Assembly (NCBI GenBank): GCA_964569795.1
Contig: CAZMVB010000001.1
Span: forward strand, 195,233-259,232
Direction: 5' to 3'
Length of the DNA: 64,000 nucleotides
DNA from: an uncultured Desulfarculales bacterium
Lineage (GTDB): Bacteria > Desulfobacterota > Desulfarculia > Desulfarculales > JAHJDS01
In this document: piece by piece, positions 27,790 through 42,854 of the stretch
How the letters are laid out: the number at the start of each line of letters is the position of its first letter
Numbering within the stretch: the first letter of the stretch is position 1
Notes under the pieces: generated by a model
Seen by the model: only the letters and a program-made list of their open reading frames with translations
Database searches by the model: none
What the model was told of the DNA's origin: nothing
Made by a program: the position numbers and the translations under genes

Positions 27790-28383
27790 ATGTTGTTTCG
27801 GGGATTGCCCAGGGTGGTCAATCTACCCAACACCCTGACCCTGTCGCGCATCATCAGCGTGCCCCTGGTGGTCTGGCTGTTGTGGGTCCCCGAGCCCGCG
27901 CCCGAGAGGAACCTGGCCGCGGCGGTCATCTTCGGCCTGGCCGCGGCCACGGACCTGCTCGACGGTTTCCTGGCCCGCCGCCGCGACGCGGTCACGGCCG
28001 TGGGCAAGCTCCTGGACCCGGTGGCCGACAAGCTCCTGGTCGCCGCCGGGCTGATCATGCTCGCCCTGGCCGGACGGGTGCCGACCTGGATGGTCTGGGT
28101 CATCCTGGGACGCGAGGTCCTGGTCAGCACCATCCGGGTCCTCGCCCTCAGGGAGGGCCTGATCATCTCCGCCCATTTCCTGGGCAAGAACAAGGCCCTG
28201 TTTCAGATGACCGCCATCTTCTTCCTGATCCTGGACAGCCACATCATAGTCTGGGGAAATCTGTCCCTGGGGATGCTGCTCATCTGGGTGGCCCTGGTCC
28301 TGACCGTCATCTCCGGGGCCGAGTACCTCTGGCGCTTCGGCTATCTCTTTTTGGGGCCGGGAAACGGCAACGCAAAATCTTGA
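27790..28383 (+). CDS. pgsA: CDP-diacylglycerol--glycerol-3-phosphate 3-phosphatidyltransferase
   Basis: NLPNTLTLSRI... and the CDP-alcohol phosphotransferase motif DLLDGFLARR...GKLLDPVADK. Confidence 0.9.
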   Translation: MLFRGLPRVVNLPNTLTLSRIISVPLVVWLLWVPEPAPERNLAAAVIFGLAAATDLLDGFLARRRDAVTAVGKLLDPVADKLLVAAGLIMLALAGRVPTWMVWVILGREVLVSTIRVLALREGLIISAHFLGKNKALFQMTAIFFLILDSHIIVWGNLSLGMLLIWVALVLTVISGAEYLWRFGYLFLGPGNGNAKS

Positions 28384-28420
28384 CAACCCCAATTCCCTGG
28401 GCTAACCTCATAGCTCTTGA

Positions 28421-28495
<75 letters not shown>

Positions 28496-28499
28496 AAAA

Positions 28500-28575
28500 G
28501 GCGGCATAGCCAAGTGGCTAAGGCAGCGGTCTGCAAAACCGTTATTCACCGGTTCGAATCCGGTTGCCGCCTCCA
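28500..28575 (+). tRNA. tRNA-Cys (anticodon GCA)
   Basis: The acceptor is GGCGGCA/TGCCGCC, the anticodon loop is CTGCAAA, the T-arm is ACCGG-TTCGAAT-CCGGT, and CCA is encoded. Confidence 0.9.
28551..28575 (+). repeat. Direct repeat copy 1 (3' end of tRNA-Cys; attL-like)
   Basis: GGTTCGAATCCGGTTGCCGCCTCCA is identical over 25 nt to 56831-56855. Confidence 0.85.
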
Positions 28576-28721
28576 TTGTTTCGATTAAAATCAATTAAAT
28601 ACTTTTGTGAATTGCCGGGAAACGACCGGGAAAAACCGCGAAAAATCAATGCCCGCTCTCTAGCTTCACCACCTTGTCTTTCCGGTACAATTTAACCAGG
28701 CGCGTCGCATCTGCTCCAGAA

Positions 28722-28872
28722 GGCTTCCCCCGCCCGCGCGGGGATCGACCTTCGAGAGCCCGCTCGATCCTCCCCCTGGTCTGGTTTCCCCCGCCCGCGC
28801 GGGGATCGACCGGTCATCTCCTCGAGGCTGAATTCATTCTGATCGTTTCCCCCGCCCGCGCGGGGATCGACC
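28722..28872 (+). CRISPR. Orphan mini-CRISPR array, type I-E-like repeats (3 repeats, 2 spacers)
   Basis: There are three 29-nt repeats: GGCTTCCCCCGCCCGCGCGGGGATCGACC (28722-28750), GGTTTCC... (28783-28811) and CGTTTCC... (28844-28872). They are separated by unique 32-nt spacers (28751-28782, 28812-28843). The internal palindrome CCCCGC/GCGGGG and the 29/32 geometry match E. coli-type I-E arrays. No cas genes are in the window. Confidence 0.7.
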
Positions 28873-28997
28873 CGTACGACCCGGCTTCGAGGTCCATTTT
28901 TCTTGGCCAATCAAACTCTAGTTCTTATTAAAAGTAACCACAACTGAAAATAATGGCCGATATTTTTTGTATTAGTAAAATCGTGGATGAATTTTTA

Positions 28998-29026
28998 TTG
29001 ACAACAATCAGGGCGTCGAATAAGAT
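28998..29026 (+). promoter_or_regulatory. Sigma-70-type promoter candidate for the XRE-cupin regulator/ort cluster
   Basis: TTGACA-17 nt-TAAGAT in AT-rich DNA, about 80 nt upstream of the ATG at 29108. Confidence 0.35.
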
Positions 29027-29107
29027 GGTACGCATCCTGGTCGGATACGGCCCCTTCCCCCTGTAGCGAGACATCCACGGTACGACGACGTAAGGCAATC
29101 GTTTATT

Positions 29108-29734
29108 ATGCCAAAAAAACGACAGGTTATATCATCTGAGGCGGCCGCGGCCGAAGGCCTTGCACCTGTTTCCACCCTGGAGGTGGTCTCGGAGCGATTG
29201 GGCGCCAAGATCAGACGGATCCGGAACGCCGAGCGTCTGACCCTTTCCGACCTGGGTGAAAAAACTGGTCTGAGCGTCAGCTTCCTGTCCCAGGTGGAAC
29301 GGGACCTCAACGATCCGTCGATCAACTCCATGCGCAAGATCGCCAATGCCCTGGGTTGCCCCCTGACCACCTTTTTCGAGGACCAGTTCCAGTCAGCCGG
29401 GCCGGTGGTCCGCAAGCACGAGCGGCGGGTCCTGTTCAACACCCAGTCCCGCCTGACATATCAGCTTCTATCCCGGTTTCAGGGCGGCCGCATCGAGTTG
29501 CTGATGACCATGCTCGAGCCGGGGACCGCCAACGTGGAGCAGCCCATGTCCCACATCGGCGAGGAGGCGGCCCTGATCATTCAGGGCGAATGTTGGTTCG
29601 AATTGGGAGAGGAAGGGTTCAGCCTCAACGAGGGTGACGCCATCTATATCCACGAAAACAAGGCCCACCGGTTCACCAACACCGGCGCGGAGACCTTGAT
29701 AATCGTGTCGGCCATTTCACCGCCCGGGTTCTGA
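29108..29734 (+). CDS. XRE-family HTH transcriptional regulator with C-terminal cupin domain (PuuR-like architecture)
   Basis: The HTH_3 segment reads LGAKIRRIRNAERLTLSDLGEKTGLSVSFLSQVERD. The cupin segment reads GEEAALIIQGECWFELGEEGFSLNEGDAIYIHENKAHRFTN. Confidence 0.85.
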   Translation: MPKKRQVISSEAAAAEGLAPVSTLEVVSERLGAKIRRIRNAERLTLSDLGEKTGLSVSFLSQVERDLNDPSINSMRKIANALGCPLTTFFEDQFQSAGPVVRKHERRVLFNTQSRLTYQLLSRFQGGRIELLMTMLEPGTANVEQPMSHIGEEAALIIQGECWFELGEEGFSLNEGDAIYIHENKAHRFTNTGAETLIIVSAISPPGF

Positions 29735-29751
29735 ACGACCCACCCGGGGGG

Positions 29752-30093
29752 GTGGGGACGACGGGGGAGATCACGATCGTGAAGGAAGCCTGCCGGGGGG
29801 ACCTGGTCCAGATCCTGTGCGTCGTCCTGGCGCCGGCGGACCGTCCCGAAAACCTCCCGCCGTCCACCCGGGCCGTGCCCTACCAGGCCTGGATCAAGGG
29901 CCTGTTGGTGGACGACCGCGCCCGCGTCGGCGACCAGGTGACCATCGAGACCTCTATCGGCCGACGTCTTTCCGGAAGGCTCCAGGCCGTGAATCCGACC
30001 TATGACCACGGTTTCGGCCGACCCCGGCCGGAACTCCTGCCGGCGGCCGTCCTGGCTCGGCAGTGGCGCTCCGACCCCGGGAGGGAAGGTTAG
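29752..30093 (+). CDS. ortA: 2-amino-4-oxopentanoate thiolase alpha subunit (OrtA)
   Basis: About 110 aa matching my recollection of the OrtA pattern: GD.VQI..VVL.P..R....P..T..VP...W.KG.L...A.VGD.V.IET.IGRR..G.L..VNP.Y.H.FG.P.PELL. It lies immediately upstream of and overlapping an OrtB-like PLP enzyme. Confidence 0.7.
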   Translation: MGTTGEITIVKEACRGDLVQILCVVLAPADRPENLPPSTRAVPYQAWIKGLLVDDRARVGDQVTIETSIGRRLSGRLQAVNPTYDHGFGRPRPELLPAAVLARQWRSDPGREG

Positions 30094-31511
30094 TGGACAC
30101 CGGCTTTCAGGCGGTCATGGCCCGCAAGGGCGACATCCTGCGCCGCACCACGGGGATCGACTACAACGCCTTCGAGTGGTCGCCGCTGGCCTTTGACTAC
30201 GAGGGCCTGATGGCCTCGGGCGGCTACGACGATGACCGCATCAGGGAGTTGCTGGCCGAGACCGGGGTGGGCGACACCCCCCTGGTCGAGCTGAAGAACC
30301 TGACCGGCCTGGTCCGCTCCATCGCCCCGCCCGGCAAGGGAGCCCGCATCTTTGTCAAGGACGAGGCGGCCAATCCCAGCGGCAGTTTCAAGGACCGGCG
30401 GGCGGCCCTGTCGGTCTATCACGCCGCCCGGCTGGGCTTCGAGGGGGTGGTCGCGGCCAGCTCGGGCAACTACGGCGCCGCCGTGGCCTCCCAGGCGGCC
30501 AAGCGCAACCTCAAGTGCATTGTGTTGCAGGAGACCTTTGACAGCCGCAAGAAGGGCCAGCCCGAGATCCTGGAAAAGACCCGGGCCTGCGAGGCCTACG
30601 GGGCCGAGGTCTGGCAACTGACCGTCGGACCGGAGCTGTTCTACATCATGCTCCGGGTCCTGGAGGAGACCGGTTTCTTCGCCGCCTCGCTCTACGTCCC
30701 GACCGCGGTCCAGGGCATCGAGACCCTGGGCCGGGAGCTGGCCGAACAGGTCAAGGAACGGACCGGCCGCTTCCCCGACGTGGTGGCCGTCACCCACGCC
30801 GGCGGGGGCAACGTCACCGGCACGGCCCGGGGCCTGAGCCGGGCCGGCAGCGGGTCAACGGCGGTCATCGGCGTGTCGGTGGACCTCCAGGGCCTGCACA
30901 TGGCCAGCGACGAGGACTTCAATCGCAAGTCGTTCACCACCGGCCATTCCGGTTATGGCATCCCCTTCGCCACCTGGCCGGACCGGACCGACGTGCCGCG
31001 CAACTGCGCCCGGGCCCTGAGGTACCTGGACCGTTATGTGCTGGTCAAACAGGGCGACGTCTTTTTCGTGACCGAGCTCCTGGCCAAGCTGGAGGGCATG
31101 GAGCGCGGGCCGGCGGGCAACACCTCGCTCACCGGGGCGATGGCCATCGCCCAGGAGATGGACCAAGACCAGATCCTGGTGGTTCAGGAGACCGAGTACA
31201 CCGCCGCCGGCAAGCTGCCGTCCTCGCAGCTGACCTTTGCCCAGGAAAACGGAGTCACCGTCCGGACCGGCGATCCGGCCGAGGGCGTGCCCGGCCGGTC
31301 GATCGTCATCCCCGAAAGTCTGGACCAGATCCGGGTCCAGGACTGGGACATGACCGGGCTCCGCCGGTCCTACATCAAAAACGCGTTCCGGGCCGCGGGC
31401 GACCACCAGCCCACCGCCCGGGACTTGGAGTTCCTGGCGGCCGATTCCAAGTCATCGGTCGAGTTCGTCACCTCGACCTGGGAGGAGATCGGCCGGGAAG
31501 GGGCGACCTGA
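30093..31511 (+). CDS. ortB: 2-amino-4-oxopentanoate thiolase beta subunit (OrtB), fold-type II PLP enzyme
   Basis: The PLP-Lys motif is NPSGSFKDRRAA, with a glycine-rich segment VVAASSGNYGAAVA. The size (about 470 aa) and the pairing with ortA fit. The GTG at 30093 overlaps the ortA stop after GGGAGGGAAGG; alternative starts are 30063 and 30117. Confidence 0.75.
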   Translation: MDTGFQAVMARKGDILRRTTGIDYNAFEWSPLAFDYEGLMASGGYDDDRIRELLAETGVGDTPLVELKNLTGLVRSIAPPGKGARIFVKDEAANPSGSFKDRRAALSVYHAARLGFEGVVAASSGNYGAAVASQAAKRNLKCIVLQETFDSRKKGQPEILEKTRACEAYGAEVWQLTVGPELFYIMLRVLEETGFFAASLYVPTAVQGIETLGRELAEQVKERTGRFPDVVAVTHAGGGNVTGTARGLSRAGSGSTAVIGVSVDLQGLHMASDEDFNRKSFTTGHSGYGIPFATWPDRTDVPRNCARALRYLDRYVLVKQGDVFFVTELLAKLEGMERGPAGNTSLTGAMAIAQEMDQDQILVVQETEYTAAGKLPSSQLTFAQENGVTVRTGDPAEGVPGRSIVIPESLDQIRVQDWDMTGLRRSYIKNAFRAAGDHQPTARDLEFLAADSKSSVEFVTSTWEEIGREGAT

Positions 31512-31584
31512 CCCGGCGCGGTCCGGACAGATGCCTGATGGCCGCCCGAGGACAACCACCGACACCCGACCGGGGGAAGGGGCC

Positions 31585-32019
31585 ATGAGCGACCAGATCA
31601 AAACGGTTGACCAGTTCTTCACCGCCATGAACCGGTACGACGTCCCGGGCATGGCCGCCCTGCTGGCCGATGACGTCGTCGCCTGGGAGGTGGCCGAGGC
31701 CGAGGCCTGCCGCGGCCGGGACGCGTTTGCCAAATCCTACACCGAGCTGTTCATTGGCTACCCCGACTGCCGGTGCGAAATCCTGGAAAGGCACGACGCC
31801 GGCCGGGACGTGATCTACGAGGTCCGCTGGGCGGCGACCAACACCGGCGTTTACAAGGGCGTGCCCCCGACCGGCAAACCGGTCGAGCTCCGGATCGCCT
31901 ATTTCTTCAAGTTCGAGGGCGACCGGATCGCCCGGATCACCGAGTACTACGATCTGGCCACCCTGCTCGTCCAGCAGGGCCAGCTTCTAACACCCAACGG
32001 CCAGGGGAGTCAGGCATGA
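31585..32019 (+). CDS. SnoaL-like / ester-cyclase-like NTF2-fold protein
   Basis: VDQFFTAMNRYDVPGMAALLADDVV...GVPPTGKPVELRIAYFFKFEGDRIARITEYYD is typical of the SnoaL polyketide-cyclase-like family. The ATG follows GGGGGAAGGGG. Confidence 0.7.
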   Translation: MSDQIKTVDQFFTAMNRYDVPGMAALLADDVVAWEVAEAEACRGRDAFAKSYTELFIGYPDCRCEILERHDAGRDVIYEVRWAATNTGVYKGVPPTGKPVELRIAYFFKFEGDRIARITEYYDLATLLVQQGQLLTPNGQGSQA

Positions 32020-33284
32020 TCTCGGCCACGGAATGGGAAATCCTGCGGGAAATAAAAAGTCGGCGGGCCCTGGAGCATATCGAGAGACTGTGCGCCTTGG
32101 GCGACCGGTTCGTGGGGACCGAGGGCGACCGGAAGGCGATCGACTATGTCCGGCGCCATTTCGAGCGATGCGGCCTGGAGATCAAGGAGACGCCGATCAC
32201 CGCGCCGTGCTTCATCGAGGAAAGTCCGCCGACCCTCCGGATCGAGGCCACGGGCCAGACCCTGACCGGCCTGTCCCCCTATCTCGGCCCGCCGACGCCC
32301 AAGGGCGGCGTCACCGGCGACGTGGTCGAAGTGGGCGAGGGGACGGAGGCCGACTTCGAGGGGATCGACGTGGACGGCAAGATCTGCCTCCTGATCGAAA
32401 AGGGGCTGGGGTATCTCAAGTTCTGGCTGGGAACCCTGGCCCAGCGGGCCGCCCGGCGCGGGGCCGTGGGCCTGATCGTGATCCATCCCATGCCCTGGCC
32501 CTACCGCAATTCCATGGAGGCCGGCAACAGCCACGTCGCCGATCGCTTCTGCTATCCCCAGCTCCCGGCCATGACCCTCTCGGCCGTGGAGGGGGCCAGG
32601 TTGATGTATGAACTGGGTCAGGGCCACACCCGGGTCCACCTGGAGGTCCACACCCTGATCGAGGAGCGCGACAGCCTGATCGTCTCCGGCGTCAAGAAGG
32701 GCGGCGAGTTCCCCGACGAGCGGGCGGCCATCCTGGGACACCGGGACACCGCCGTCCCGCCCGGGGCCAACGACAACACCAGCGGCACGGCCTGCGTGCT
32801 CACCCTGGCCGAGGTCCTGAGCGGGCGGGACTCCCGCCGGGGCTTCGAGTTCATCTCGTCCACGGCCGAGGACGGGGCCACCCTGGGGGCCTACCTCTAC
32901 TGCCAGGCGCATAAAGAAGAACTGCAGCGGAACATGAAGTGCCTGATCGACACGGACATGATCAGCGTCGGCGGCCAGATCAAGCAGGTCGCCAAGGGGC
33001 TGTGGCCCGACGCCGACCCGGTTCACGCCACGGGATGGCTGATGGACCTGGTCGATGAGGTGGCCGAGGACCTGGGCTACTACTTCGGCCGAATGGAGGC
33101 CGCCTGGGGCGTGGCCGAGAGCGCCCGGTTCCTGGACATCGGCGTGCCGTCCACCTGGTTCTGGGCCCCGGACGACCCCTATTACCACTCCACCGAGGAC
33201 AGCCCGGACAAGATCAACCCCAACAGCCTCAAGGCGGTGATGGACGTCTCGGCGGTGGTCATGTGGCGGCTGGCCCAGGAGTAG
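32016..33284 (+). CDS. M28-family metallopeptidase with PA domain
   Basis: ATGA overlap with the upstream gene. The PA-domain-like segment is GDVVEVGEGTEADFEGIDVDGKICLL. The M28 zinc motif is ILGHRDTAVPPGANDNTSG. The usual EE pair reads AED here. Confidence 0.8.
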   Translation: MISATEWEILREIKSRRALEHIERLCALGDRFVGTEGDRKAIDYVRRHFERCGLEIKETPITAPCFIEESPPTLRIEATGQTLTGLSPYLGPPTPKGGVTGDVVEVGEGTEADFEGIDVDGKICLLIEKGLGYLKFWLGTLAQRAARRGAVGLIVIHPMPWPYRNSMEAGNSHVADRFCYPQLPAMTLSAVEGARLMYELGQGHTRVHLEVHTLIEERDSLIVSGVKKGGEFPDERAAILGHRDTAVPPGANDNTSGTACVLTLAEVLSGRDSRRGFEFISSTAEDGATLGAYLYCQAHKEELQRNMKCLIDTDMISVGGQIKQVAKGLWPDADPVHATGWLMDLVDEVAEDLGYYFGRMEAAWGVAESARFLDIGVPSTWFWAPDDPYYHSTEDSPDKINPNSLKAVMDVSAVVMWRLAQE

Positions 33285-33349
33285 GCCGGGTCCGACGGAG
33301 GACGGGGGCGACCTCCGGGACCTGAAGAAAAACTTGCACGGGGGCGGGG

Positions 33350-34990
33350 ATGTTTTCCCTCCTCATTAAAAACGTCAAGCTGGTGGACGGCCGGGGCAAT
33401 CCCTGGCAATGGGCCGACGTCGGGCTCGACGGCCCGATCGTCGCCGCCGTGGGCCGCCTGGAAGAGGCCGAGGCCGAGCGGGTGATCGACGGCCAGGGAC
33501 GGGTGCTGGCCCCTGGATTCATCGACATGCACTCCCACGCCGACCTGGTCTTTCTGAGCGAGCGCCAGACCGAGCTGTTGGAGGGCCGGATCCGGCAGGG
33601 AATCACCACCGAGATCGTGGGCAACTGCGGCATCGGCCTGGCCCCGATCAAGGATCAGGACAAGTCGGCCTACGCCGCCAGCGTGGGCTGGATGACGCCG
33701 GAGACGGTCCCCTGGACCTGGAACAGCACGGCCGACTACCTCGACGCCCTGGAGGCCAAGGGGGTCCCGATCAACGTCGGCACCCTGACCGGCCACGGCG
33801 CGATCCGCTGCCTGGCCAAGGGCTTCGCCGGCGGCCTGGCCCTGTCCGCGGAACTCGAGGTCATGACCCAGGCCCTGGCCCGCAGTCTGGAGCAGGGCTC
33901 CTTTGGTCTGTCCAACGGCCTGATCTACCCGCCGGGCATGTTCGCCGACACCGCCGAGTTCATCGAGCTGGGCCGGGTGGTGGCCCATTACGACCGGCTG
34001 CTGACCAGCCACGTCCGGGGATCGAGCGAGACCGACGTCGAGGCCGAGGGGGAACTGATCACCATCGGCCGGGAGGCCGGCTGCCGGGTCCACCGCTCCC
34101 ACAACGAGGTCGTGGGCCGCGACCACTGGCCCAAGATCGAGACGACCCTGAAAATGGACGAGGAGGCCCGGCGGCAAGGGGTGGACATCGCCTTTGACAT
34201 GTTCCCCTACACCGCGGCGATGACGATGATGGTCGCCATCTACCCGCCCTGGACCCTGGACGGCGGCTGGGATCGGTTTTTGGAAAGGGTCCAGGACCCG
34301 GCCACCCGGTCCCGCATGGAGCGGGACATCGAGACAATGGTGCCCCGGTGGCCGACCTGGCTCCCGGGCTCCTGGCCCCACAACCTGGTCAAGGCCTGCG
34401 GCTGGGACCTGATCCACATCGGCTACATCCCCAGCCAAAGGAACAAGGAGTTCGAGGGGCTGAACCTGGCCGAACTGGGCCGGCGTCTGGGCAAGTCCCC
34501 CTTTGACGCCATCACCGACCTGATGATCGAGGAACAGGGGGCCATCAGCCAGCTCATCTTCGGGGTGTCCGGCGACCGCCAGACCGAGGAGGCCCTCAAA
34601 AAGATCATGACCCACCGTCTGGGCGGCTTTGCCACCGACGCCGTGGACATCGGTCAGGGCCGGCCCCACCCGGCGTCCTACGGCACTTTTCCGCGGATCC
34701 TGGGCCGCTACGTCCGGGAACTGGGGCTGCTCGGCCTGGAGGACGCCGTCCGCCGGATGACCTCCTTCCCGGCGGCCCGGCTGGGGATCAAGGACCGGGG
34801 CGCGGTCGCCGTGGGGTACCAGGCCGACCTGGTGCTCTTCGATCCGGAGACCATCGCCGACCGGGCGACCTACGAGGAGCCCCGGCAATTCCCGGTGGGT
34901 CTGGACTACGTCATCGTCAACGGCCAGGTCCTGGTGGAAGGAGACCGCCTCCATCCCATCCGGCCGGGCCGGGTGTTGCGCAAAACCTAG
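33350..34990 (+). CDS. N-acyl-D-amino-acid deacylase (D-aminoacylase) family amidohydrolase
   Basis: IKNVKLVDGRG...VLAPGFIDMHSHADL (HxH metal motif), 546 aa, and the D-aminoacylase-type C-terminus ADLVLFDPETIADRATYEEP...G...V.VNG. Confidence 0.8.
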   Translation: MFSLLIKNVKLVDGRGNPWQWADVGLDGPIVAAVGRLEEAEAERVIDGQGRVLAPGFIDMHSHADLVFLSERQTELLEGRIRQGITTEIVGNCGIGLAPIKDQDKSAYAASVGWMTPETVPWTWNSTADYLDALEAKGVPINVGTLTGHGAIRCLAKGFAGGLALSAELEVMTQALARSLEQGSFGLSNGLIYPPGMFADTAEFIELGRVVAHYDRLLTSHVRGSSETDVEAEGELITIGREAGCRVHRSHNEVVGRDHWPKIETTLKMDEEARRQGVDIAFDMFPYTAAMTMMVAIYPPWTLDGGWDRFLERVQDPATRSRMERDIETMVPRWPTWLPGSWPHNLVKACGWDLIHIGYIPSQRNKEFEGLNLAELGRRLGKSPFDAITDLMIEEQGAISQLIFGVSGDRQTEEALKKIMTHRLGGFATDAVDIGQGRPHPASYGTFPRILGRYVRELGLLGLEDAVRRMTSFPAARLGIKDRGAVAVGYQADLVLFDPETIADRATYEEPRQFPVGLDYVIVNGQVLVEGDRLHPIRPGRVLRKT

Positions 34991-35037
34991 CGCCCTCGCC
35001 CGAAACCGGCGGGGGACAAACTGAACGGGGGAAAGCC

Positions 35038-35874
35038 ATGACAGCCAGTGATGCGGTCCTGACGAACCCGATCTTCGAGGCCATCAACCGGGTGGGCCAG
35101 TCGCCCCAGGAGGCGATCCACGTCTGGGGGCAGGGCCTGGCCGTCCACCACGGCAACCTGCTGGCCGGCCTGGACGCCAACGTGGACCGGGCCGAGGTCC
35201 GCCAGGCGATCCTGAGAGACATCTGGAAGTTCGTCCAGTCCCAGGGTCTGACCGCGGTCAATGACGGTCTGGGGCTCACGGCCGAGCCGGATCTGGACGC
35301 CCTGAACGCGCTCATGGCCGCAATCCTGGCCGACGCCGGGCACCCCAAATTGACCGGCCTGGGGGCGGACGTCAACGAGTCCCTGGTCAACTGGGTCAAG
35401 GCCTTCACCCTGTACGACTGGGCGGCCTACACCTATCTCGAAAAACACCTGGGCTCGAAAGAGGGCCTCAAGATCTACATGGGGCTGTGGGAGTCCTTCG
35501 CCCTGGGCGTCCTGCCGGACATGAAGGCGGCCCTGGGCATCACCAGCGCCGAGGACCTGGACATGGCCATGATCAAGACCCTGTCCGAGCACTACTGGGC
35601 GGCCATCGGCTGCGCCAGCAACACCACCCGGTTCGACGACAACGTGTACGAGGCCGAACTGAGCGACTGCGCCTACTGGCTGAATATGAAGGACATGCTG
35701 GGCGAGGACCTGTCCCGGTCCATGACCCTCAAGACCGAGGCGGCGGTGTCGGTCAACTACTACGACGCCATCCTCAAGGCCCTGGGCGTCTTTGACCGGT
35801 ACTCGTTCACCATGGACCGGTTCCAGTGCTGCGGCGACGACCACTGCCGGGTCCGGTTCGAGCGCCGCGGCTAG
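35038..35874 (+). CDS. Uncharacterised protein, paralog A of a Cys-motif family (ATC-hydrolase-like?)
   Basis: Coding-like composition. The C-terminal half aligns by eye with ORF 37591-38193 (FTLYDW../FTLHDF.., DMAMIK/DDLIK, SDCAYW/TDCPYT, QCCGDDHCRVRFERR/QLCRTNDACEFTYRRK). Confidence 0.6.
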   Translation: MTASDAVLTNPIFEAINRVGQSPQEAIHVWGQGLAVHHGNLLAGLDANVDRAEVRQAILRDIWKFVQSQGLTAVNDGLGLTAEPDLDALNALMAAILADAGHPKLTGLGADVNESLVNWVKAFTLYDWAAYTYLEKHLGSKEGLKIYMGLWESFALGVLPDMKAALGITSAEDLDMAMIKTLSEHYWAAIGCASNTTRFDDNVYEAELSDCAYWLNMKDMLGEDLSRSMTLKTEAAVSVNYYDAILKALGVFDRYSFTMDRFQCCGDDHCRVRFERRG

Positions 35875-35925
35875 AAACGTCCGACCCCCGGGGCGGTCGG
35901 AGCGCTGACAAGGAGGGCGGGATTC

Positions 35926-36414
35926 ATGGCTTCCATCCTGATCATCTATCAGTCCCAGACGGGAAACACCCGGGCCATGGCCGAGGCGATCGAGGCCGGC
36001 GTCCGGGACGAGGGCGTGGACGTCGTCCGCAAGGACATCGCCGCGGCCAGCATCGACGACCTGCCTGACTTCGACGGCGTGATCATCGGATCGCCGACCT
36101 ATTTCGCCGCGACCACGGCCGAGGTCAAGCGGTTCATCGACGACAGCATCAAGTATTACAAAAAACTTGACGGCAAGGTGGGCGCCGCCTTCACCTCCTG
36201 CGGCGATCTGGGGGGCGGCGGGGAGACGGCCATCCTGGACATCCTGCGGTCCTTCCTCGTTCACGGCATGCTCGTCCCCGGGTACGTCGAGGGCGGCCAC
36301 TATGGTCCGGTGTCGGTCGGACATCCGGACGAGGAACGAAAACAAGTCTGCCGGTCATTCGGGTCCCGAGTGGCCCGGGTGGTCAAGGCCGTGGCCGGCG
36401 TGGTGACCGTTTGA
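35926..36414 (+). CDS. Flavodoxin-fold FMN protein (flavodoxin/WrbA-like)
   Basis: ILIIYQSQTGNTRAMAEAI...VIIGSPTYFAATTAEVKRFID is a classic flavodoxin FMN-binding pattern. Confidence 0.85.
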   Translation: MASILIIYQSQTGNTRAMAEAIEAGVRDEGVDVVRKDIAAASIDDLPDFDGVIIGSPTYFAATTAEVKRFIDDSIKYYKKLDGKVGAAFTSCGDLGGGGETAILDILRSFLVHGMLVPGYVEGGHYGPVSVGHPDEERKQVCRSFGSRVARVVKAVAGVVTV

Positions 36415-36434
36415 GGGCGGCCCGGGGGTGAACC

Positions 36435-37538
36435 ATGATTGTCGGCGTTCCCAAGGAAATAAAGGCGGCCGAAAGACGGGTCTCCCTCACGCCGGCCGGG
36501 GTCAAGGCCCTGACCGACGCTGACCACACGGTGCTGATCGAACGGGCGGCCGGCGAGGGCAGCGGCTTCACCGACGAGTCTTACCAGCGAGCCGGGGCCC
36601 AAATCCGGTCCGGGGCGGAGGAGGTCTGGATCGAGGCGGAGATGATCCTCAAGGTCAAGGAGCCGGTCGAGCCGGAATTCGACCGGATGCGGCCCGGGTT
36701 GATCGTGTTCACCTACCTCCATCTGGCCGCAAACGCCGAACTGACCCGGAAGCTGTTGGAGGCCGGGGTCGTGGGGCTGGCCTATGAGACCATCCAGACC
36801 GATGACCGCCGCTTGCCCCTCCTGGCGCCCATGAGCGCCGTGGCCGGGCGGCTGTCCATCCAGGCCGGGGCCTTCAGCCTGGAGACCAACAACGGCGGCC
36901 GGGGGGTCCTGCTCAGCGGCGTGCCCGGCGTTCGACCGGCCAAGGTGGTCATCCTGGGCGCCGGAGTGGCCGGTCTCAACGCCTGCCTCATCGCCGTGGG
37001 CATCGGCGCCCGGGTCTCGGTCCTGGACATCAACCACGACCGCCTCGAGGCCTTGAGCCATCTGACCGGCGGGCGGGCGGTGACCCTGATGTCCAACCAG
37101 GTCAGCGTCGAGGAGGAAGTCAGCCGGGCCGACTTGGTCATCGGCTCGGTGCTCATCCCCGGCGCCAAGGCGCCCAAGCTGATCCCCCGGGAACTGGTCA
37201 AGAACATGAAGCCCGGGGCGGCCATCGTTGACATCTCCATCGACCAGGGAGGCTGCTGCGAGACCAGCCTGCCCACGACCCACTTCGAACCGACCTATGT
37301 CGAGGACGGAGTGGTCCATTACTGCGTCACCAACATGCCGGGCGTGGTGCCCCGGACCTCCACCCTGGCCCTGACCAACGCCACCCTCCCTTACATTCTT
37401 GAGGTGGCCGACAAGGGCTATCAGAGGGCCGTGGCCGAAAACCCCGAAATAGCCGCGGGGCTGAACCTGCTGGAGGGAAAACTGGTGAACGAGGCCGTGG
37501 CCCGCAGCCTGGGCCTACCCCTGTCCACCATGAACTAG
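36435..37538 (+). CDS. ald: Alanine dehydrogenase
   Basis: [23 protein letters not shown]..., the NAD fold [13 protein letters not shown], and DISIDQGGC; 367 aa. Confidence 0.9.
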
Positions 37539-37590
37539 GCCCGTCCGGGCCGGGAGAATTTGGAAACAACTCTTTTCAGGGAGGCAAGTC

Positions 37591-38193
37591 ATGTCAGAAC
37601 AAGCACCGGCTTTCGCCCCGATTCGTTATGACAACGTCATCAAGAATTACCAGGAGATGGCCAAGACCAAGCCCTATCTGACCTTCGAGTACGGGCTGGA
37701 GGCGATGCTGACCATCTTCACCCTGCACGACTTCTCCATGTTCCATGAACTGGAGGAGGAGTTCGGGACCGAGAAGGCGGTCGAGCTCTACGGCCGGATC
37801 TGGAAGCGGCGGACCTACCTGGAGTGGCCGGGGCTGCTGCAGTTCATCGGCAAGAAGGAGGGCGACCGGATCGACATGGACGATCTGATCAAGATCATGG
37901 AGGTCTATTTCGAGACCTTCGGCAACCCGATCTTCCTGGCCCGGCGGACCGATGACGAGGTGACCTTCCGGGTCACCGACTGCCCCTACACCACCCAGAT
38001 CCTGTGGCCCATGTTCCCGGCCGAGGAGAACCTGGCCTACAACGACAAGATCCAGGTAGAATGCAACTACGCCATCTTCGAGACCTTCCTCGAACTGGCC
38101 GGCCTGGAGGGCAAGTGGATCTTCGGTTTCCCGTCGCAGTTGTGTCGGACCAACGACGCCTGCGAGTTCACCTATCGCCGGAAGAAGTTCTAA
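37591..38193 (+). CDS. Uncharacterised protein, paralog B of the Cys-motif family
   Basis: See 35038-35874. It shares the FTLxD, DCxY and C...D.C.F.(Y/F).RR motifs. AGGGAGG lies upstream of the ATG. Confidence 0.6.
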   Translation: MSEQAPAFAPIRYDNVIKNYQEMAKTKPYLTFEYGLEAMLTIFTLHDFSMFHELEEEFGTEKAVELYGRIWKRRTYLEWPGLLQFIGKKEGDRIDMDDLIKIMEVYFETFGNPIFLARRTDDEVTFRVTDCPYTTQILWPMFPAEENLAYNDKIQVECNYAIFETFLELAGLEGKWIFGFPSQLCRTNDACEFTYRRKKF

Positions 38194-38289
38194 CCCGCCG
38201 GCCGGTCCCGGGCCCGACGCGGCAACGGGCCGGGTCGGGGGCGATCCGGGGGGGGGTTGGTGGCCTTAACACAGTTTGGAGGGGAAGAC

Positions 38290-39468
38290 ATGAAAAAGTT
38301 TGTGATCATCACCCTGGTGATCGCCGTCGCCGTCGCCGTGGGCCTGACGGCCCTGTCCGGCTCCCTGGTGGCGGCCAAGAAAAAAGGCCCGATCAAGATC
38401 GGCGCGGTGCTCAACTTCACCGGACCGATCGCCTTCATCGGTCCCATCTTCAAACGGGGCATCGTCCAGGCCCTGGAGGAGGTCAAATACACGGTCGGGG
38501 GCCGCAAGATCGTGCTGATCGTCGAGGACGCCGCCTCCAGTCCGGCCAAGTGCGTCGAGAAGGTCAAGAAGCTGGTCGAACGGGACAAGGTCCAGATCAT
38601 CATCGGCCCGCTCATGGGTGACGCCCAGTTGGCCATCGCCCCCTATCTGAAGCGGAAGAAGGTCCTGATCTCGACCCTGTACTGCGGCGACATCAAGCTG
38701 ACCAACTATCCCAACTGGCTGATCTATCCGACGACCCTGGTCGGCCTGACCGCGCCCGTGGGCTGGTACGCCGCCGACCGGGGCTGGAAGCGGATGGTGA
38801 CCATCGGCTCGGACTACGCGGGCGGCCGCGGCTTCATCAAGGGCATCAAGCTCGGGTTCGAGCAGAGGGGCGGCAAGGTGGTCCAGCAGATCTGGGCCCC
38901 GGTCGGCACCCGGGATTACGGCCCGGCCCTGTCCAACGTCACCCGGAAGGCCGACTGCTCGGCTTACTTCGTGGCCAGCCCGACCGAGGTCCTGCGGTTT
39001 CTGCCCCAGTACCGTCAGTTCGTCGGCCCCCGGCTGCCCCTCCTGGCGACCACCGCCGCGGCAGACATGCCCGAGGCGATCATGAAGCAGCTCAAGAAGA
39101 ACGTCCTGGGCCTCGAGGGCCAGGCCCTGTACATCAACACCCGGAAGGACCCGGTCAACATGGCCTTTGTCAAGGCCATGAAGAAACGCTGGGGCAAGGT
39201 ACCCGGAGGCCTGGAGAGCAATTCCTACTGCATCACCAGGGCCATCCTGTCCGGTCTCAAGGCCACCGGCGGAGACGAGTCATTCGACAAGCTCAAGCCG
39301 GCCATCTTGAAGATCAAGCTCCAGACGCCCCAGGGGCCCCTGTCCTGGACCCGGCACGGCGTGGCGGTGACCGACTGCTACATCGCCCGGGCGACGTTCA
39401 AGAACGGTCACTGGTTCTGGCAGCCGATCAAGATCTATAAGGCGGTCATGGATCCGCGGCTGAAGTAG
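38290..39468 (+). CDS. ABC transporter substrate-binding protein (branched-chain amino acid/LivK-type, family 4)
   Basis: Signal peptide MKKFVIITLVIAVAVAVGLTALSGSLVAA, then the PIKIGAVLNFTGPIA pattern of Leu/Ile/Val-binding proteins. Confidence 0.9.
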   Translation: MKKFVIITLVIAVAVAVGLTALSGSLVAAKKKGPIKIGAVLNFTGPIAFIGPIFKRGIVQALEEVKYTVGGRKIVLIVEDAASSPAKCVEKVKKLVERDKVQIIIGPLMGDAQLAIAPYLKRKKVLISTLYCGDIKLTNYPNWLIYPTTLVGLTAPVGWYAADRGWKRMVTIGSDYAGGRGFIKGIKLGFEQRGGKVVQQIWAPVGTRDYGPALSNVTRKADCSAYFVASPTEVLRFLPQYRQFVGPRLPLLATTAAADMPEAIMKQLKKNVLGLEGQALYINTRKDPVNMAFVKAMKKRWGKVPGGLESNSYCITRAILSGLKATGGDESFDKLKPAILKIKLQTPQGPLSWTRHGVAVTDCYIARATFKNGHWFWQPIKIYKAVMDPRLK

Positions 39469-39482
39469 TCCGGAAAAAAAGC

Positions 39483-39512
39483 TTCGGGGCGGGGCGAGGG
39501 TCCCGCCCCGAA
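39483..39512 (+). other. GC-rich intercistronic hairpin between binding-protein and permease genes
   Basis: An 11-bp perfect stem (TTCGGGGCGGG / CCCGCCCCGAA) with an 8-nt loop. No U-tract follows on the + strand, so it is a possible mRNA stabiliser or attenuator. Confidence 0.35.
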
Positions 39513-39549
39513 ACATCGCCCCGCCGGCAAACCTACCGGGTGAGACGCC

Positions 39550-40410
39550 ATGTCCTGGTTCCTGGTCAATCTCTTCAACGGCCTGTCCTACGGCATGGTC
39601 TTGTTTCTGATCGCCTCGGGCATGTCCATCGTCATGGGGGCCATGGGCATCACCAACCTGGCTCACGGGGCCCTGTACATGGTCGGGGCCTACATCGGAT
39701 GGACGGTGGCCGTCAAGCTCGGGGCCGGATTCTGGCTGGGCGTGGCCGCCGGCGGGGTGGCCGCCGGACTGGTGGGCCTGGTGATCGAGCGTGGTTTTCT
39801 GCGTTTTCTGTACAAACAGGCCAACGAACAGGTCCTGCTGACCTTTGGATTCGTGTACATCATTTCCAACCTGTGCCTCTGGATCTGGGGGGGCTGGCCG
39901 CGGATGGCCTTCACCGCCGACTTTTTGACCGGGACCTTCCCCCTCCTGGACCGGACCTACCCCAAGGCCCGCCTGGCGACGATCGTCCTGGGTCTTATCG
40001 TGGCGGTGGGGCTGTGGTGGGTCCAGGAAAGAACCCGGGTCGGGGCCATGGTCCGGGCCGGCATGGACGACAAGGAAACGGCCCAGGCCCTGGGCATCAA
40101 TCTGGAACGGGTTTTCGCGATCATGTTTTTCGGGGCCTCGTTCGTGGCCGGCCTGGCCGGGGTGTTGGGGGCCCAGATGCTGGGCGTCAACCCGAACATG
40201 GGCATGGAGATCCTGCTGCTGGCCTTGATCGTGATCATCGTCGGCGGCGTGGGATCGGTCGGCGGCGCCCTGGTGGGCGGGGTGCTGATCGGCCTGATCG
40301 ACGCCTTCGGCCGGGCGGTCCTCCCGCAACTGTCCATGTTCATCATGTACCTGGCCATGGTCATTGTCCTGACTATCCGGCCCAGCGGACTCTTGGGTCG
40401 AAAGAACTGA
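39550..40410 (+). CDS. livH: Branched-chain amino acid ABC transporter permease (LivH-type)
   Basis: MSWFLVNLFNGLSYGMVLFLIASGMSIVMG...TNLAHGALYMVGAY is a canonical LivH N-terminus; the protein is polytopic. Confidence 0.9.
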   Translation: MSWFLVNLFNGLSYGMVLFLIASGMSIVMGAMGITNLAHGALYMVGAYIGWTVAVKLGAGFWLGVAAGGVAAGLVGLVIERGFLRFLYKQANEQVLLTFGFVYIISNLCLWIWGGWPRMAFTADFLTGTFPLLDRTYPKARLATIVLGLIVAVGLWWVQERTRVGAMVRAGMDDKETAQALGINLERVFAIMFFGASFVAGLAGVLGAQMLGVNPNMGMEILLLALIVIIVGGVGSVGGALVGGVLIGLIDAFGRAVLPQLSMFIMYLAMVIVLTIRPSGLLGRKN

Positions 40411-40413
40411 GCC

Positions 40414-41433
40414 ATGCAGGTGACCGAATCGCTTTCCCTGAAGACGCCCCCGATGACGCTTCCCCGGGTTGGACACCCCTGGGTGGGATTCGTCGGCCTG
40501 ACGGTCCTTCTGGCCGGACTCCCCCTGCTGGTGACCGGATATTACCAGGGCCTGATGACCCGGTTTCTGATCTACGGCCTGTTCGCCGTGAGCTACAATT
40601 TGGCCTTTGGCTACACCGGGTTGCTGTCCCTGGGGCACGGCGCCTTTTTCGGGGCCGGGGCCTACTGCGTCGCTTTGTTGACGATGCACGCCGGGATCGA
40701 TTCCCTGTGGGTCGGGGCGCCGCTGGGGGTGGCCACGGCCGTTTTGGTGGCGGCCCTGTTCGGCCTGATCGCCCTCAGGGCCTCGGGTATCTACTTTCTG
40801 CTGGTGACCTTTGCCCTGGGTCAGATGTGTTTCAGCGTGGCCTGGAACTTCAAGTGGTTCAACTCGCCGGGGATGAGGGGCATCACCGGCCTGGACCTGC
40901 CGACCCTGGGCATTAAGGGCCTGGCCCTGACGACCGCCAGCTATTACTATCTGGTCCTGGGGATCTTCCTGGCCAGCCTGGTGGTGCTTCACCTGATCGT
41001 CCGCTCTCCCTTCGGCCTGTCCCTGGTGGGCATCAGGGAGGACGAGGCCCGGATGGAGGCCGTGGGCTACAACACCTGGCTGCACAAGTATCTGGCCTTT
41101 GTCATCTCGGGGCTGTTCTGCGGCCTGGCCGGGGTGCTGTTCGCCTATTACAACAACATGGTGGAACCGAATCACCTGGCGGTGGACACCTCGTTTTTAC
41201 CGATGGTCATGGCCATCATCGGCGGTCAGGGAACCTTGTTCGGACCCATTGTCGGGGCGGCGTTGATCGTCTTCTTCCAGGAAGTGGTCAGCGAGGTCAT
41301 GCCCATCCGGTGGCCTCTGGTCCTGGGCGGCCTGTTCGTGGTGTCGATCATGCTCGCCCGGCAGGGGGTCTGGGTGTATCTGAAAACGCTCATCGTCAGG
41401 ATCGGCCCAGGTCATGGAAGCGCTGAGAGTTGA
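40414..41433 (+). CDS. livM: Branched-chain amino acid ABC transporter permease (LivM-type)
   Basis: YNLAFGYTGLLSLGHGAFFGAGAY is the LivM signature; the protein is polytopic. Confidence 0.9.
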   Translation: MQVTESLSLKTPPMTLPRVGHPWVGFVGLTVLLAGLPLLVTGYYQGLMTRFLIYGLFAVSYNLAFGYTGLLSLGHGAFFGAGAYCVALLTMHAGIDSLWVGAPLGVATAVLVAALFGLIALRASGIYFLLVTFALGQMCFSVAWNFKWFNSPGMRGITGLDLPTLGIKGLALTTASYYYLVLGIFLASLVVLHLIVRSPFGLSLVGIREDEARMEAVGYNTWLHKYLAFVISGLFCGLAGVLFAYYNNMVEPNHLAVDTSFLPMVMAIIGGQGTLFGPIVGAALIVFFQEVVSEVMPIRWPLVLGGLFVVSIMLARQGVWVYLKTLIVRIGPGHGSAES

Positions 41434-42157
41434 GGACTTGAAAAAAAGCTTCGGCGGAGTTCAGGCCGTGGCCGGGGTGACCTTTGACGTCGCGGTCGGG
41501 GAGCATCTGGTGATCATCGGCCCCAACGGGGCCGGCAAGACCACGCTCCTGAATCTGATCAACGGCCAGTGGACCCCTTCCGGGGGACGGATCGAATTCT
41601 TCGGCCGGGACGTCACCCGGATGTCCACCCATCGCCGCTCTCACCTGGGCATGGCCCGGGCCTTTCAGACGATCAGCCTCCTGGCCAACCTTTCGCTTCT
41701 GGAAAACGTCCTGCTGACCCTGTATGGAACCACGCCTTACCGGTTCCGGATGTTCATGCGGATGGAGGGGTTCGCCGACATCGTCGAATCGGCCCGGCGG
41801 ATCCTGTCCTCGCTGGACCTGTGGGCCCGACGGGACGAGCCCCTCAACAGCATTTCCTACGGCGAACAACGTCGCCTGGAGATCAGCCTGGGGCTGGCCC
41901 TGGAACCGAAAATGCTGCTCTTGGACGAGCCCAGCGCCGGCCTGACCAAGGAGGAGAGTCAGGTCGTGGTGGACATCATCCGGAACCTGGCCGAGGACCA
42001 GACGTTGCTGATCGTGGACCATGACATGGAACTGGTCTTCGAGGTCGCCTCGCGGATCATCGTCCTGCACCAGGGGCTGGTCATCGCCGACGGACCGCCG
42101 GGCGAAATCCAGAACGACCAGCGGGTCAGGGAAGTCTATATGGGCGTGGACGAGTGA
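41414..42157 (+). CDS. livG: ABC transporter ATP-binding protein (LivG-type)
   Basis: Walker A GPNGAGKTT, signature YGEQRRLEI, Walker B LLLLDEPSAG. It overlaps the livM end. Confidence 0.9.
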   Translation: MEALRVEDLKKSFGGVQAVAGVTFDVAVGEHLVIIGPNGAGKTTLLNLINGQWTPSGGRIEFFGRDVTRMSTHRRSHLGMARAFQTISLLANLSLLENVLLTLYGTTPYRFRMFMRMEGFADIVESARRILSSLDLWARRDEPLNSISYGEQRRLEISLGLALEPKMLLLDEPSAGLTKEESQVVVDIIRNLAEDQTLLIVDHDMELVFEVASRIIVLHQGLVIADGPPGEIQNDQRVREVYMGVDE

Positions 42158-42164
42158 GGCGGCC

Positions 42165-42854
42165 ATGCTGCACCTGAAGGACCTACACACCTATTACGGC
42201 GATACCCACGTCCTCCAGGGCCTGTCCCTGGACGTCGGGCCGGGGGCGGTGGTCGCCCTGTTGGGCCGTAACGGCATGGGCAAGACGACCACCATCCGGT
42301 CCATCCTTGGCCTGACCCCGCCCCGCAGCGGTTCGATCCGCTTCCAGGACCAGGAACTGACCCGCCTTAAGAGCCACCAGGTCGCCAGGCTGGGCATCGG
42401 CCTGGTGCCCCAGGGCCGCAACATCTTTCCGTCGCTTAGCGTCCGGGAAAACCTGACCGTGGCCGCCCGGAGTTCGGGCTGGAACCTGGACCAGGTTTAC
42501 CAGCACTTTCCCATCCTGCGGGATCGGGCCGGTCTCAAAGGGAACCTGCTCAGCGGCGGCGAGCAGCAGATGCTGGCCATCGCCCGGGCCTTGATGACCA
42601 ACCCGGATCTGATGCTCATGGACGAGCCGTCCGAGGGCCTGGCGCCGATGATCGTTCGCCTGATCGGCGACATCATCATTCAATTGAAGGAAACCGGAAT
42701 CTCGCTGCTACTGGTCGAACAGAACTATCCCCTGGCCCGGCGCGTGGCAGACTACGTCTATGTCATCGCCAAGGGAGAGATCGTCTATCATGCCCCGATG
42801 GGCGACCTGGATGAAAACGAAGAGATCAAGGTCAAATACTTGTGTGCCACTTGA
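42165..42854 (+). CDS. livF: ABC transporter ATP-binding protein (LivF-type)
   Basis: Walker A GRNGMGKTT, signature LSGGEQQMLAI, Walker B LMLMDEPSEG. The ATG at 42165 was chosen (MLHLKDLHTYYG). Confidence 0.9.
   Translation: MLHLKDLHTYYGDTHVLQGLSLDVGPGAVVALLGRNGMGKTTTIRSILGLTPPRSGSIRFQDQELTRLKSHQVARLGIGLVPQGRNIFPSLSVRENLTVAARSSGWNLDQVYQHFPILRDRAGLKGNLLSGGEQQMLAIARALMTNPDLMLMDEPSEGLAPMIVRLIGDIIIQLKETGISLLLVEQNYPLARRVADYVYVIAKGEIVYHAPMGDLDENEEIKVKYLCAT

Follow-up and report, generated by a model that had tools for sequence, protein, structure and literature searches.

An ortAB cluster without ornithine-pathway partners in an uncultured Desulfarculales bacterium: a candidate further entry to 2-amino-4-oxopentanoate thiolase

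The genes ortA and ortB encode a thiolase which acts on (2R)-2-amino-4-oxopentanoate (AKP) in the reaction AKP + coenzyme A (CoA) = acetyl-CoA + D-alanine (EC 2.3.1.263). To our knowledge, this enzyme has so far been tied to two substrates, ornithine and hydroxyproline, and both known routes need upstream radical chemistry, in the form of a B12 aminomutase or of a glycyl-radical enzyme. Both genes are present in the stretch of DNA analysed here (hereafter the window), which comprises 64,000 nucleotides at positions 195,233 to 259,232 of contig CAZMVB010000001.1 (GCA_964569795.1) from an uncultured Desulfarculales bacterium. They belong to a cluster of 15 plus-strand genes spanning 29108-42854, from a regulator gene through livF, and the question raised by this locus is what its other genes supply to the thiolase.

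The cluster is read here as a self-contained catabolic operon, which would provide a further entry to the AKP thiolase besides the ornithine and hydroxyproline routes; the probability assigned to this reading is about 0.55. The genes are listed below with their coordinates in the window and the evidence for each, and every one of them is present in a single copy in the genome.

29108-29734, plus strand: XRE-HTH/cupin regulator (HTH_3 7.6e-12, Cupin_2 1.1e-10)
29752-30093, plus strand: ortA, small subunit of 2-amino-4-oxopentanoate thiolase (NF040739, 95.9 bits; PF22010, 95 bits)
30093-31511, plus strand: ortB, pyridoxal phosphate (PLP)-dependent subunit, 472 amino acids (NF040741, 764.6 bits)
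31531-32019, probable ATG start 31585, plus strand: NTF2-fold SnoaL-like protein, SnoaL_A (SnoaL_2 1.6e-20, SnoaL 3.5e-20)
32016-33284, plus strand: cytoplasmic M28 metallopeptidase with PA domain, 422 amino acids (Peptidase_M28 6e-19, PA 3.6e-5)
33350-34990, plus strand: Amidohydro_3 enzyme of the D-acylase family (3gip 1.1e-76, 1m7j 1.7e-74)
35038-35874, plus strand: Unk1, 278 amino acids, predicted V4R/H-NOX/Bet3 fold (AlphaFold2 (AF2) model, structure matches)
35926-36414, plus strand: WrbA-like flavodoxin-fold flavin mononucleotide (FMN) protein (Flavodoxin_5, FMN_red, Flavodoxin_1; 2ark 4e-27, WrbA 6e-14)
36435-37538, plus strand: L-alanine dehydrogenase (TIGR00518, 507.7 bits)
37591-38193, plus strand: Unk2, 200 amino acids, paralogue of Unk1 (hhalign, AF2 model)
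38257-39468, probable start 38290, plus strand: livK, Liv-type periplasmic solute-binding protein with signal sequence (Peripla_BP_6 4e-50)
39550-40410, plus strand: livH, permease (BPD_transp_2)
40414-41433, plus strand: livM, permease (BPD_transp_2)
41414-42157, plus strand: livG, ATPase (ABC_tran)
42165-42854, plus strand: livF, ATPase (ABC_tran)

The ten plus-strand genes which a first-pass annotation had named at 29108-38193 all lie there, and livKHMGF follow them up to 42854. The naming of the thiolase itself is equally sound, since OrtA and OrtB pass the NCBIfam equivalog cut-offs of 70 and 550 bits, the OrtB match covering model positions 3-462 of 464. OrtB has a fold-type II PLP core (PALP 2.4e-46) with the motif PSGSFKDRRA, the lysine of which we take to be the Schiff-base lysine, and its 472-residue form is the one present in the protein database.

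The first-pass annotation had also reported that the canonical partners of ortAB are missing from the neighbourhood, and the absence extends to the genome (4.40 Mb in 81 contigs, 94% complete). No profile match reached the cut-off for Ord, OraS or the OraE/KamD-type protein anywhere in the genome, and tblastn with queries taken from canonical clusters in as many as three phyla (Bacillota, Chloroflexota, Actinomycetota) gave no true genome-wide match to Ord, OraS, OraE, Or-4 or Orr at E<=1e-5. The single match obtained was a run-on open reading frame (ORF) that includes OrtA, and was rejected as an ornithine gene. As positive controls, the Ord profile search found Ord in five other genomes, and the tblastn queries recovered all the canonical genes but Or-4 in the locus of G157, another genome of the window's phylum.

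A neighbourhood census placed the cluster in a broader context. From more than 565 OrtB loci overall, 80 from other species, taken from one-genome-per-species collections, were compared by tblastn and all-against-all ORF clustering with NCBIfam naming. Canonical clusters with Ord, OraS, OraE, a GlmL-like Or-4 and Orr account for 44 of the 80, and 27 have none of these five ornithine genes and carry the window's gene set instead. In these 27 variant loci, orthologues were found of SnoaL (22 loci), Unk1 (20), the regulator (19), the amidohydrolase (17), M28 (17) and Unk2 (15), together with Liv genes, and SnoaL_A orthologues occur in none of the canonical loci. The variant loci encode one to three NTF2/SnoaL proteins each, and some contain families missing from the window's cluster, namely a second NTF2 paralogue (13 loci), an alanine racemase (15) and an Acs/PrpE-type ligase (5); alanine dehydrogenase lies within the cluster in five related loci. 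The cluster is thus not peculiar to this organism, and the module is common to several phyla.

It was found in six phyla: Thermodesulfobacteriota, Myxococcota-labelled metagenome-assembled genomes (MAGs), Spirochaetota, Chloroflexota, Thermotogota and Bipolaricaulota. Gene content is kept and gene order is shuffled among Desulfobacterota-like, Thermotogota, Dehalococcoidia, Chloroflexia, Spirochaetota and Bipolaricaulota loci. A metagenomic contig whose Unk1 is 82% identical has the window's gene order minus the flavodoxin, and on a much more distant contig M28, Unk2-like, Unk1-like, OrtA and OrtB are still together. Because these genes stay together even there, M28, the Unk pair and OrtAB can be regarded as the core of the module, and no partners show a tighter link to OrtAB than Unk1, Unk2 and M28. 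A search of five other module-carrying genomes, three of them on chromosome-scale contigs, did not find Ord or OraE. In a distant version of the module (L096:602-8060), two copies of ortA flank a 734-amino-acid molybdopterin oxidoreductase, between the M28, Unk2-like and Unk1-like genes and ortB.

A quick maximum-likelihood tree gathered the OrtB proteins of the module loci in one clade of 30 (Shimodaira-Hasegawa-like approximate likelihood-ratio test, SH-aLRT, 99), made up of 26 variant loci, four loci without informative context and no canonical locus. Only four of the 472 positions discriminate this clade from canonical OrtB (L/M39, V/I120, S/T123 and L/H375), three of the changes being conservative and that at position 375 not (Leu in the clade, His in canonical OrtB), and 108 of the 472 columns are invariant across 81 sequences. 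Since so few positions discriminate and so many are invariant, the comparison argues for the same chemistry, acting on AKP or something very close to it.

The same tree also leaves room for a thiolase which has moved to a different 2-amino-4-oxo acid, with a substituted or longer acyl part, and which would release another acyl-CoA together with alanine. The separateness of the clade and the non-conservative change at 375 point this way, as does the ligase of five loci, which scores higher on propionate-CoA ligase than on acetate models. The nearest solved relatives of the binding protein are 4zpj and then 4ey3, 4evs and 4f06 from Rhodopseudomonas, rather than LivJ or LivK; the Rhodopseudomonas proteins are presumably aromatic carboxylate binders, which is a weak hint only. 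Against a shifted substrate stand the 61-68% identity to canonical OrtB, the conservative nature of three of the four discriminating positions and the high score on the equivalog model, so that we consider it unlikely.

How AKP might be reached has to be read from the enzymes upstream of the thiolase. The amidohydrolase had been taken for an N-acyl-D-amino-acid deacylase, a label of which the family fold, the metal site and the catalytic Asp have stood, and the classical substrate has become doubtful. Like the true D-acylases 3gip (N-acyl-D-glutamate deacylase) and 1m7j (D-aminoacylase), to which it aligns with E about 1e-76, the protein has HxH/Cys/His/His ligands and a catalytic Asp (H61, H63, C93, H221, H251 and D430), all invariant in 12 sequences. 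The carboxylate (c-) site of all characterised D-acylases contains a Tyr (YPY) and an Arg (HPR) which bind the alpha-carboxylate of the substrate (PMC12149444). In the window, by contrast, F285 replaces the Tyr, A442 the Arg and E253 the neighbouring Lys (motifs DMFPY and PHPAS), and the mobile domain has an insertion of ~60 residues; all 11 aligned module orthologues have Phe or Ile and Ala at the Tyr and Arg positions. A Sumerlaeota amidohydrolase which lies beside ortAB in another context retains both Tyr and Arg. Because the carboxylate-binding pair is lost, a classical N-acyl-D-amino acid is an unlikely substrate, and the protein appears from its residues to be a D-acylase-family hydrolase with an altered leaving-group site. 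This suggests a substrate whose amine part lacks a free alpha-carboxylate; that part may belong to a peptide or to a ring.

The second hydrolase, M28, keeps all five metal ligands (His, Asp, Glu/Asp, Asp, His) and the catalytic Glu, with H242, D253, E285, D314 and H391 invariant in 13 orthologues; the ligand positions follow from an alignment to aminopeptidase 2ek8 and from what is known of the family. Its nearest solved structure is that aminopeptidase (1e-19), and no signal peptide was found in it. At residues 285-286 (32868-32873), the window protein reads AED and the orthologue consensus AEE, the ligand beside the catalytic Glu being Asp here.

Unk1 and Unk2, which the first-pass annotation had left as two unknown proteins, do fall outside the named families: Unk1 has no Pfam or NCBIfam match, and Unk2 remains below the Pfam gathering thresholds of DUF6125 (PF19620; 21 bits against 27) and ATC_hydrolase (PF14196; 19 against 28.1). 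They are paralogues (hhalign probability 98.2%, E 5.5e-14) and, with M28, the most constant companions of OrtAB, which gives them a central place in the module. Each is ~50% identical across phyla, with invariant cysteines at C211, C264 and C270 of Unk1 and at C131, C158, C185 and C191 of Unk2. The AF2 models, with predicted local distance difference test (pLDDT) values of 92.6 for Unk1 and 88.1 for Unk2, show structural matches to H-NOX and Bet3/TRAPP and to the V4R sensor domains of PoxR, MopR and DmpR; Unk1 aligns to H-NOX with Z 9.2 and 3.3 A over 166 residues (VIA-align; Foldseek E about 5e-3) and Unk2 to Bet3/TRAPP with a Foldseek value of 2e-4. Atlas feature scores to the DUF6125/ATC_hydrolase families were 0.90-0.92 for Unk2 and 0.86-0.87 for Unk1, and the Atlas models of these families gave structural template modelling (TM) scores of 0.63-0.66 by query and 0.76-0.79 by target. 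On these models, both proteins are predicted to have a V4R/Bet3/H-NOX ligand-binding fold and to be DUF6125/ATC-hydrolase-like. In V4R sensor domains, the place corresponding to the Unk cysteines is occupied by a Cys-rich zinc site, and by this analogy our guess is that the Unk site binds zinc rather than an iron-sulphur cluster.

The homologues of Unk1 form about 290 clusters at 90% identity; all those to which a source gives a name are called hypothetical, and each of the 120 listed comes from a metagenome or a MAG. The Unk2 profile found only 37 representative clusters in 1.8 billion proteins. Distant Unk2 homologues were rejected as a clue to function, their contexts being short contigs or unrelated neighbourhoods (e.g. 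an LLM oxidoreductase with an aminotransferase). In two such contigs (L094:3243-9257 and L095:787-6801), the homologue lies between a divergent alanine dehydrogenase, 55% identical to that of the window, and an arginase-family gene with a GlcD/GlcF-like oxidoreductase pair.

The far end of the route is easier to follow. The alanine dehydrogenase passes its equivalog cut-off (391.85 bits) and is the genome's only copy (a single tblastn match), and one alanine racemase is encoded on contig 2, outside the cluster. The racemases found in the cluster in 15 loci support D-alanine as a product; alanine racemase also adjoins some canonical ornithine clusters. Taken with the alanine dehydrogenase and ligase genes of five loci each, they make D-alanine and a short acid fitting products. 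The flavodoxin is missing from otherwise complete clusters (L091, L024, L028 and L040) and is therefore an optional member, so that the conversion probably needs no net redox step.

The liv-type ABC importer noted in the first pass proved to be a complete five-gene Liv-type (hydrophobic amino acid transporter, HAAT) set, with a binding protein, two BPD_transp_2 permeases and two ATPases which match ABC_tran twice and also BCA_ABC_TP_C. The regulator had been called PuuR-like; its HTH and cupin architecture is as described, and its score on the PuuR model falls far under the cut-off (70 bits against 211). Its orthologue heads the cluster in 19 related loci. Catabolism is pointed to by the importer with its binding protein together with this dedicated regulator, and a catabolic reading ending in acetyl-CoA and alanine or pyruvate, as the first-pass annotation had suggested, fits the conserved racemase, alanine dehydrogenase and acetyl-CoA synthetase-type partners.

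The route can be sketched as follows. The Liv-type system would import a small nitrogen-containing compound, probably a carboxylate, which two cytoplasmic metallohydrolases would unmask, namely the D-acylase-like amidohydrolase without recognition of a free alpha-carboxylate and the M28 aminopeptidase-type enzyme. The NTF2/SnoaL protein and Unk1/Unk2 may then bind, open or tautomerise the intermediate to give AKP, from which OrtAB would form acetyl-CoA and D-alanine. The latter would be racemised, by an in-cluster racemase in many relatives and by the single alr on another contig here, and alanine dehydrogenase would convert L-alanine into pyruvate and ammonium. The gene identities, the conserved module, the separate OrtB clade and the failure to find ornithine-pathway genes in the genome are observations, whereas we infer which way the flux runs, in what order the hydrolyses occur, what the NTF2 and Unk proteins do and what kind of substrate enters.

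A parallel for the upstream part is offered by the Pseudomonas pathway from 2-amino-thiazoline-4-carboxylate (ATC) to cysteine, in which the ring-opening hydrolase AtcB acts with AtcC, an N-carbamoyl-amino-acid amidohydrolase of the M20 family. The likeness lies in the pairing of a protein of the ATC_hydrolase/DUF6125 superfamily (Unk1 and Unk2) with an MH-clan metallo-amidohydrolase (M28 here), which suggests ring opening followed by release of the amino acid; by analogy with the ring-opening and decarbamoylating pair AtcB/AtcC, AKP may come from a ring or from an N-acylated form of it. The differences are that the Unk proteins remain below the Pfam thresholds and form two paralogues with sites of three or four cysteines, and that the product would be a keto-amino acid and not cysteine. 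No support was found in these data for any of the candidate substrates considered: hydroxyproline, 4-oxoproline, N-acetyl- or N-carbamoyl-AKP, AKP-containing peptides, cyclic amidines or ureides of the ectoine or dihydropyrimidine type, pyrrole-2-carboxylate, picolinate, dipicolinate, homarine and histidine-ring products. Several of them would call for redox reactions, and the cluster encodes no enzyme for these.

A bolder version of the proposal sees in M28, Unk1/Unk2 and the NTF2 proteins a new enzyme system, independent of B12 and of radical enzymes, which would open or unmask a common heterocyclic or N-acylated D-configured compound of sediment necromass directly to (2R)-AKP. This is speculative and, in our estimate, doubtful. 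If true, it would be a third biochemical route to AKP and would give the widespread DUF6125/ATC-hydrolase-like V4R-fold family its first catalytic function.

Several points weigh against the operon as read here. G157 has Unk1-M28-Unk2 on a separate 4.1-kb contig, and its only detected OrtB lies in a complete canonical cluster (Ord-OrtA-OrtB-OraS-OraE-Orr-Alr), so that the module may share a thiolase, or a second ortAB may be unassembled in that genome. Among the loci and proteins examined there was no cultured carrier. The genome's own cluster is without the in-cluster racemase and the second NTF2 paralogue that its relatives have. Moreover, the Unk fold is otherwise known from sensors and scaffolds, and the sole enzymatic label in the superfamily, ATC hydrolase, reportedly rests on an old genetic study.

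Hydroxyproline offers another source of AKP. A glycyl-radical C-N lyase of Clostridia, HplG, is said to lead from hydroxyproline to AKP (reportedly the work of Duan et al., JACS 2022). In its likeness to the proposed operon, that route makes AKP from a non-ornithine precursor and cleaves it with OrtAB; the window's cluster differs from it in having no glycyl-radical enzyme or activase. An unlinked HplG-like enzyme could nevertheless make AKP from 4-hydroxyproline, the other cluster genes serving to release or trim hydroxyproline compounds. Hydroxyproline is an isomer of AKP and abundant in nature, which counts in favour of this explanation, and the genome does encode two glycyl-radical enzymes of the PFL2/dehydratase subfamily, on contig 2 (L088) and contig 3 (L089), with a predicted activase gene beside the latter; a PFL-like enzyme is present in four of the five other module-bearing genomes. 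However, both enzymes are unlinked to the cluster, none being within the window, and neither reaches an equivalog cut-off. No gene of the proline-racemase/hydroxyproline-epimerase family was found in the genome, and G428, with a complete module on a single chromosome record of 2.5 Mb, has no PFL-like gene. Nor does this reading explain why M28, Unk1, Unk2 and the NTF2 proteins are so strictly conserved, and a hydroxyproline origin of this kind appears improbable. For the ORF next to the contig-2 enzyme there was no NCBIfam match, and a 793-amino-acid Terrisporobacter ORF adjoining ortAB, which has the size of a glycyl-radical enzyme, was rejected as an HplG reference because it showed no similarity to the two glycyl-radical enzymes.

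Read in reverse, the cluster could be biosynthetic: alanine would be formed and racemised, and OrtAB would join it to acetyl-CoA, giving AKP as a building block of some metabolite. In principle, D-alanine and acetyl-CoA could be provided and condensed by the set of Ald, Alr, Acs and OrtAB, and NTF2/SnoaL proteins are cyclases in polyketide pathways. This direction is very improbable, as the module constantly includes an importer and its periplasmic binding protein, two hydrolases are present, no conserved ligase, nonribosomal peptide synthetase (NRPS), polyketide synthase (PKS) or exporter accompanies them, and the thiolase equilibrium favours cleavage. Finally, an ordinary ornithine pathway with scattered genes, or a chance adjacency, is close to refuted: some genes could be missing from an incomplete assembly, and G157 does combine a canonical cluster with Unk1-M28-Unk2, but the five canonical genes were found neither by profile nor by tblastn, Ord and OraE are not found in the other five carriers, the gene set recurs with differing orders in six phyla, and the OrtB clade is without a canonical locus.

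Compared with the oxidative L-ornithine cluster (orr, oraS, oraE, or-4, ord, ortA and ortB in Clostridium sticklandii and C. difficile), the proposed operon has the same equivalog-level OrtA/OrtB and the same expected products, acetyl-CoA and D-alanine. It differs in its separate OrtB clade and in its partners, which are hydrolases, NTF2 proteins and V4R-fold proteins and not a B12 aminomutase and a dehydrogenase. The terminal enzyme pair is known, and the upstream module, of which no description was found in the literature, would be a further entry into the AKP thiolase. Across uncultured anaerobes of sediments, from six phyla or more, radical chemistry gives way in this module to hydrolases, NTF2 proteins and a pair of proteins whose family is unstudied. 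The module implies that a substrate so far overlooked is turned into acetyl-CoA and pyruvate in anoxic sediments, and it offers an experimental handle on the function of DUF6125/ATC-hydrolase-like proteins. It also calls for caution with metagenome annotations, in which the labels 'ortAB' and 'D-aminoacylase' do not imply ornithine fermentation or the use of N-acyl-D-amino acids. A literature search returned only C. difficile and ornithine papers, none of them describing ortAB in this context.

The genes are closely packed. A gap of 17 nt separates the XRE gene from ortA, the GTG start of ortB overlaps the ortA stop by 1 nt (TAGTG), the stop of the SnoaL gene and the start of M28 overlap by 4 nt (ATGA), and the gaps elsewhere measure 3-96 nt. 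Some starts were corrected during this reading: that of M28 is 32016, not 31773 or 32033, that of livF is 42165, and the probable starts of the SnoaL gene (31585) and of livK (38290) each have a GGAGG-like site just 5' of them. Three further features lie within or beside the cluster:

28421-28575, plus strand: tRNA-Gly(GCC) and tRNA-Cys(GCA), directly upstream (ARAGORN)
28998-29026, plus strand: best sigma-70-like promoter match (TTGACA, 17 nt, TAAGAT), with 10 of 12 positions matching, by consensus only, 82 nt 5' of the regulator gene
39481-39514, no strand assigned: G+C-rich hairpin of 13 bp, between the binding-protein gene and the permease genes

Judged from its sequence and position, the hairpin is possibly an intra-operon attenuator or RNA stabiliser, and may determine how much binding protein is made relative to permease. 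An A-run flanks one side of it in the 39469-39549 interval.

Downstream, the ~700 bp 3' of livF (42855-43559) contain no convincing gene, a 289-amino-acid minus-strand ORF at 42708-43577 being without a Pfam match. The major facilitator superfamily (MFS) gene at 43542-44807 was rejected as a member of the module, since none of the 80 loci has a homologue of it at E<=1e-10. MFS transporters adjoin some of the related clusters.

Upstream, the tRNA pair is followed by an AT-rich, gene-free stretch up to the regulator gene (28421-29100), and the G+C content falls to 0.59 in 28001-30000; the pair is the left edge of an accessory region bearing the cluster. In a sample of 401 genomes of the window's phylum, its own genome included, OrtB is present in 11 and Unk1 in two, both Unk1 carriers also having OrtB, and among 40 relatives only one, a genome of the same genus, has OrtB. 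Because OrtB is rare among relatives and tRNA genes adjoin the cluster, this distribution fits horizontal acquisition and spread of the operon.

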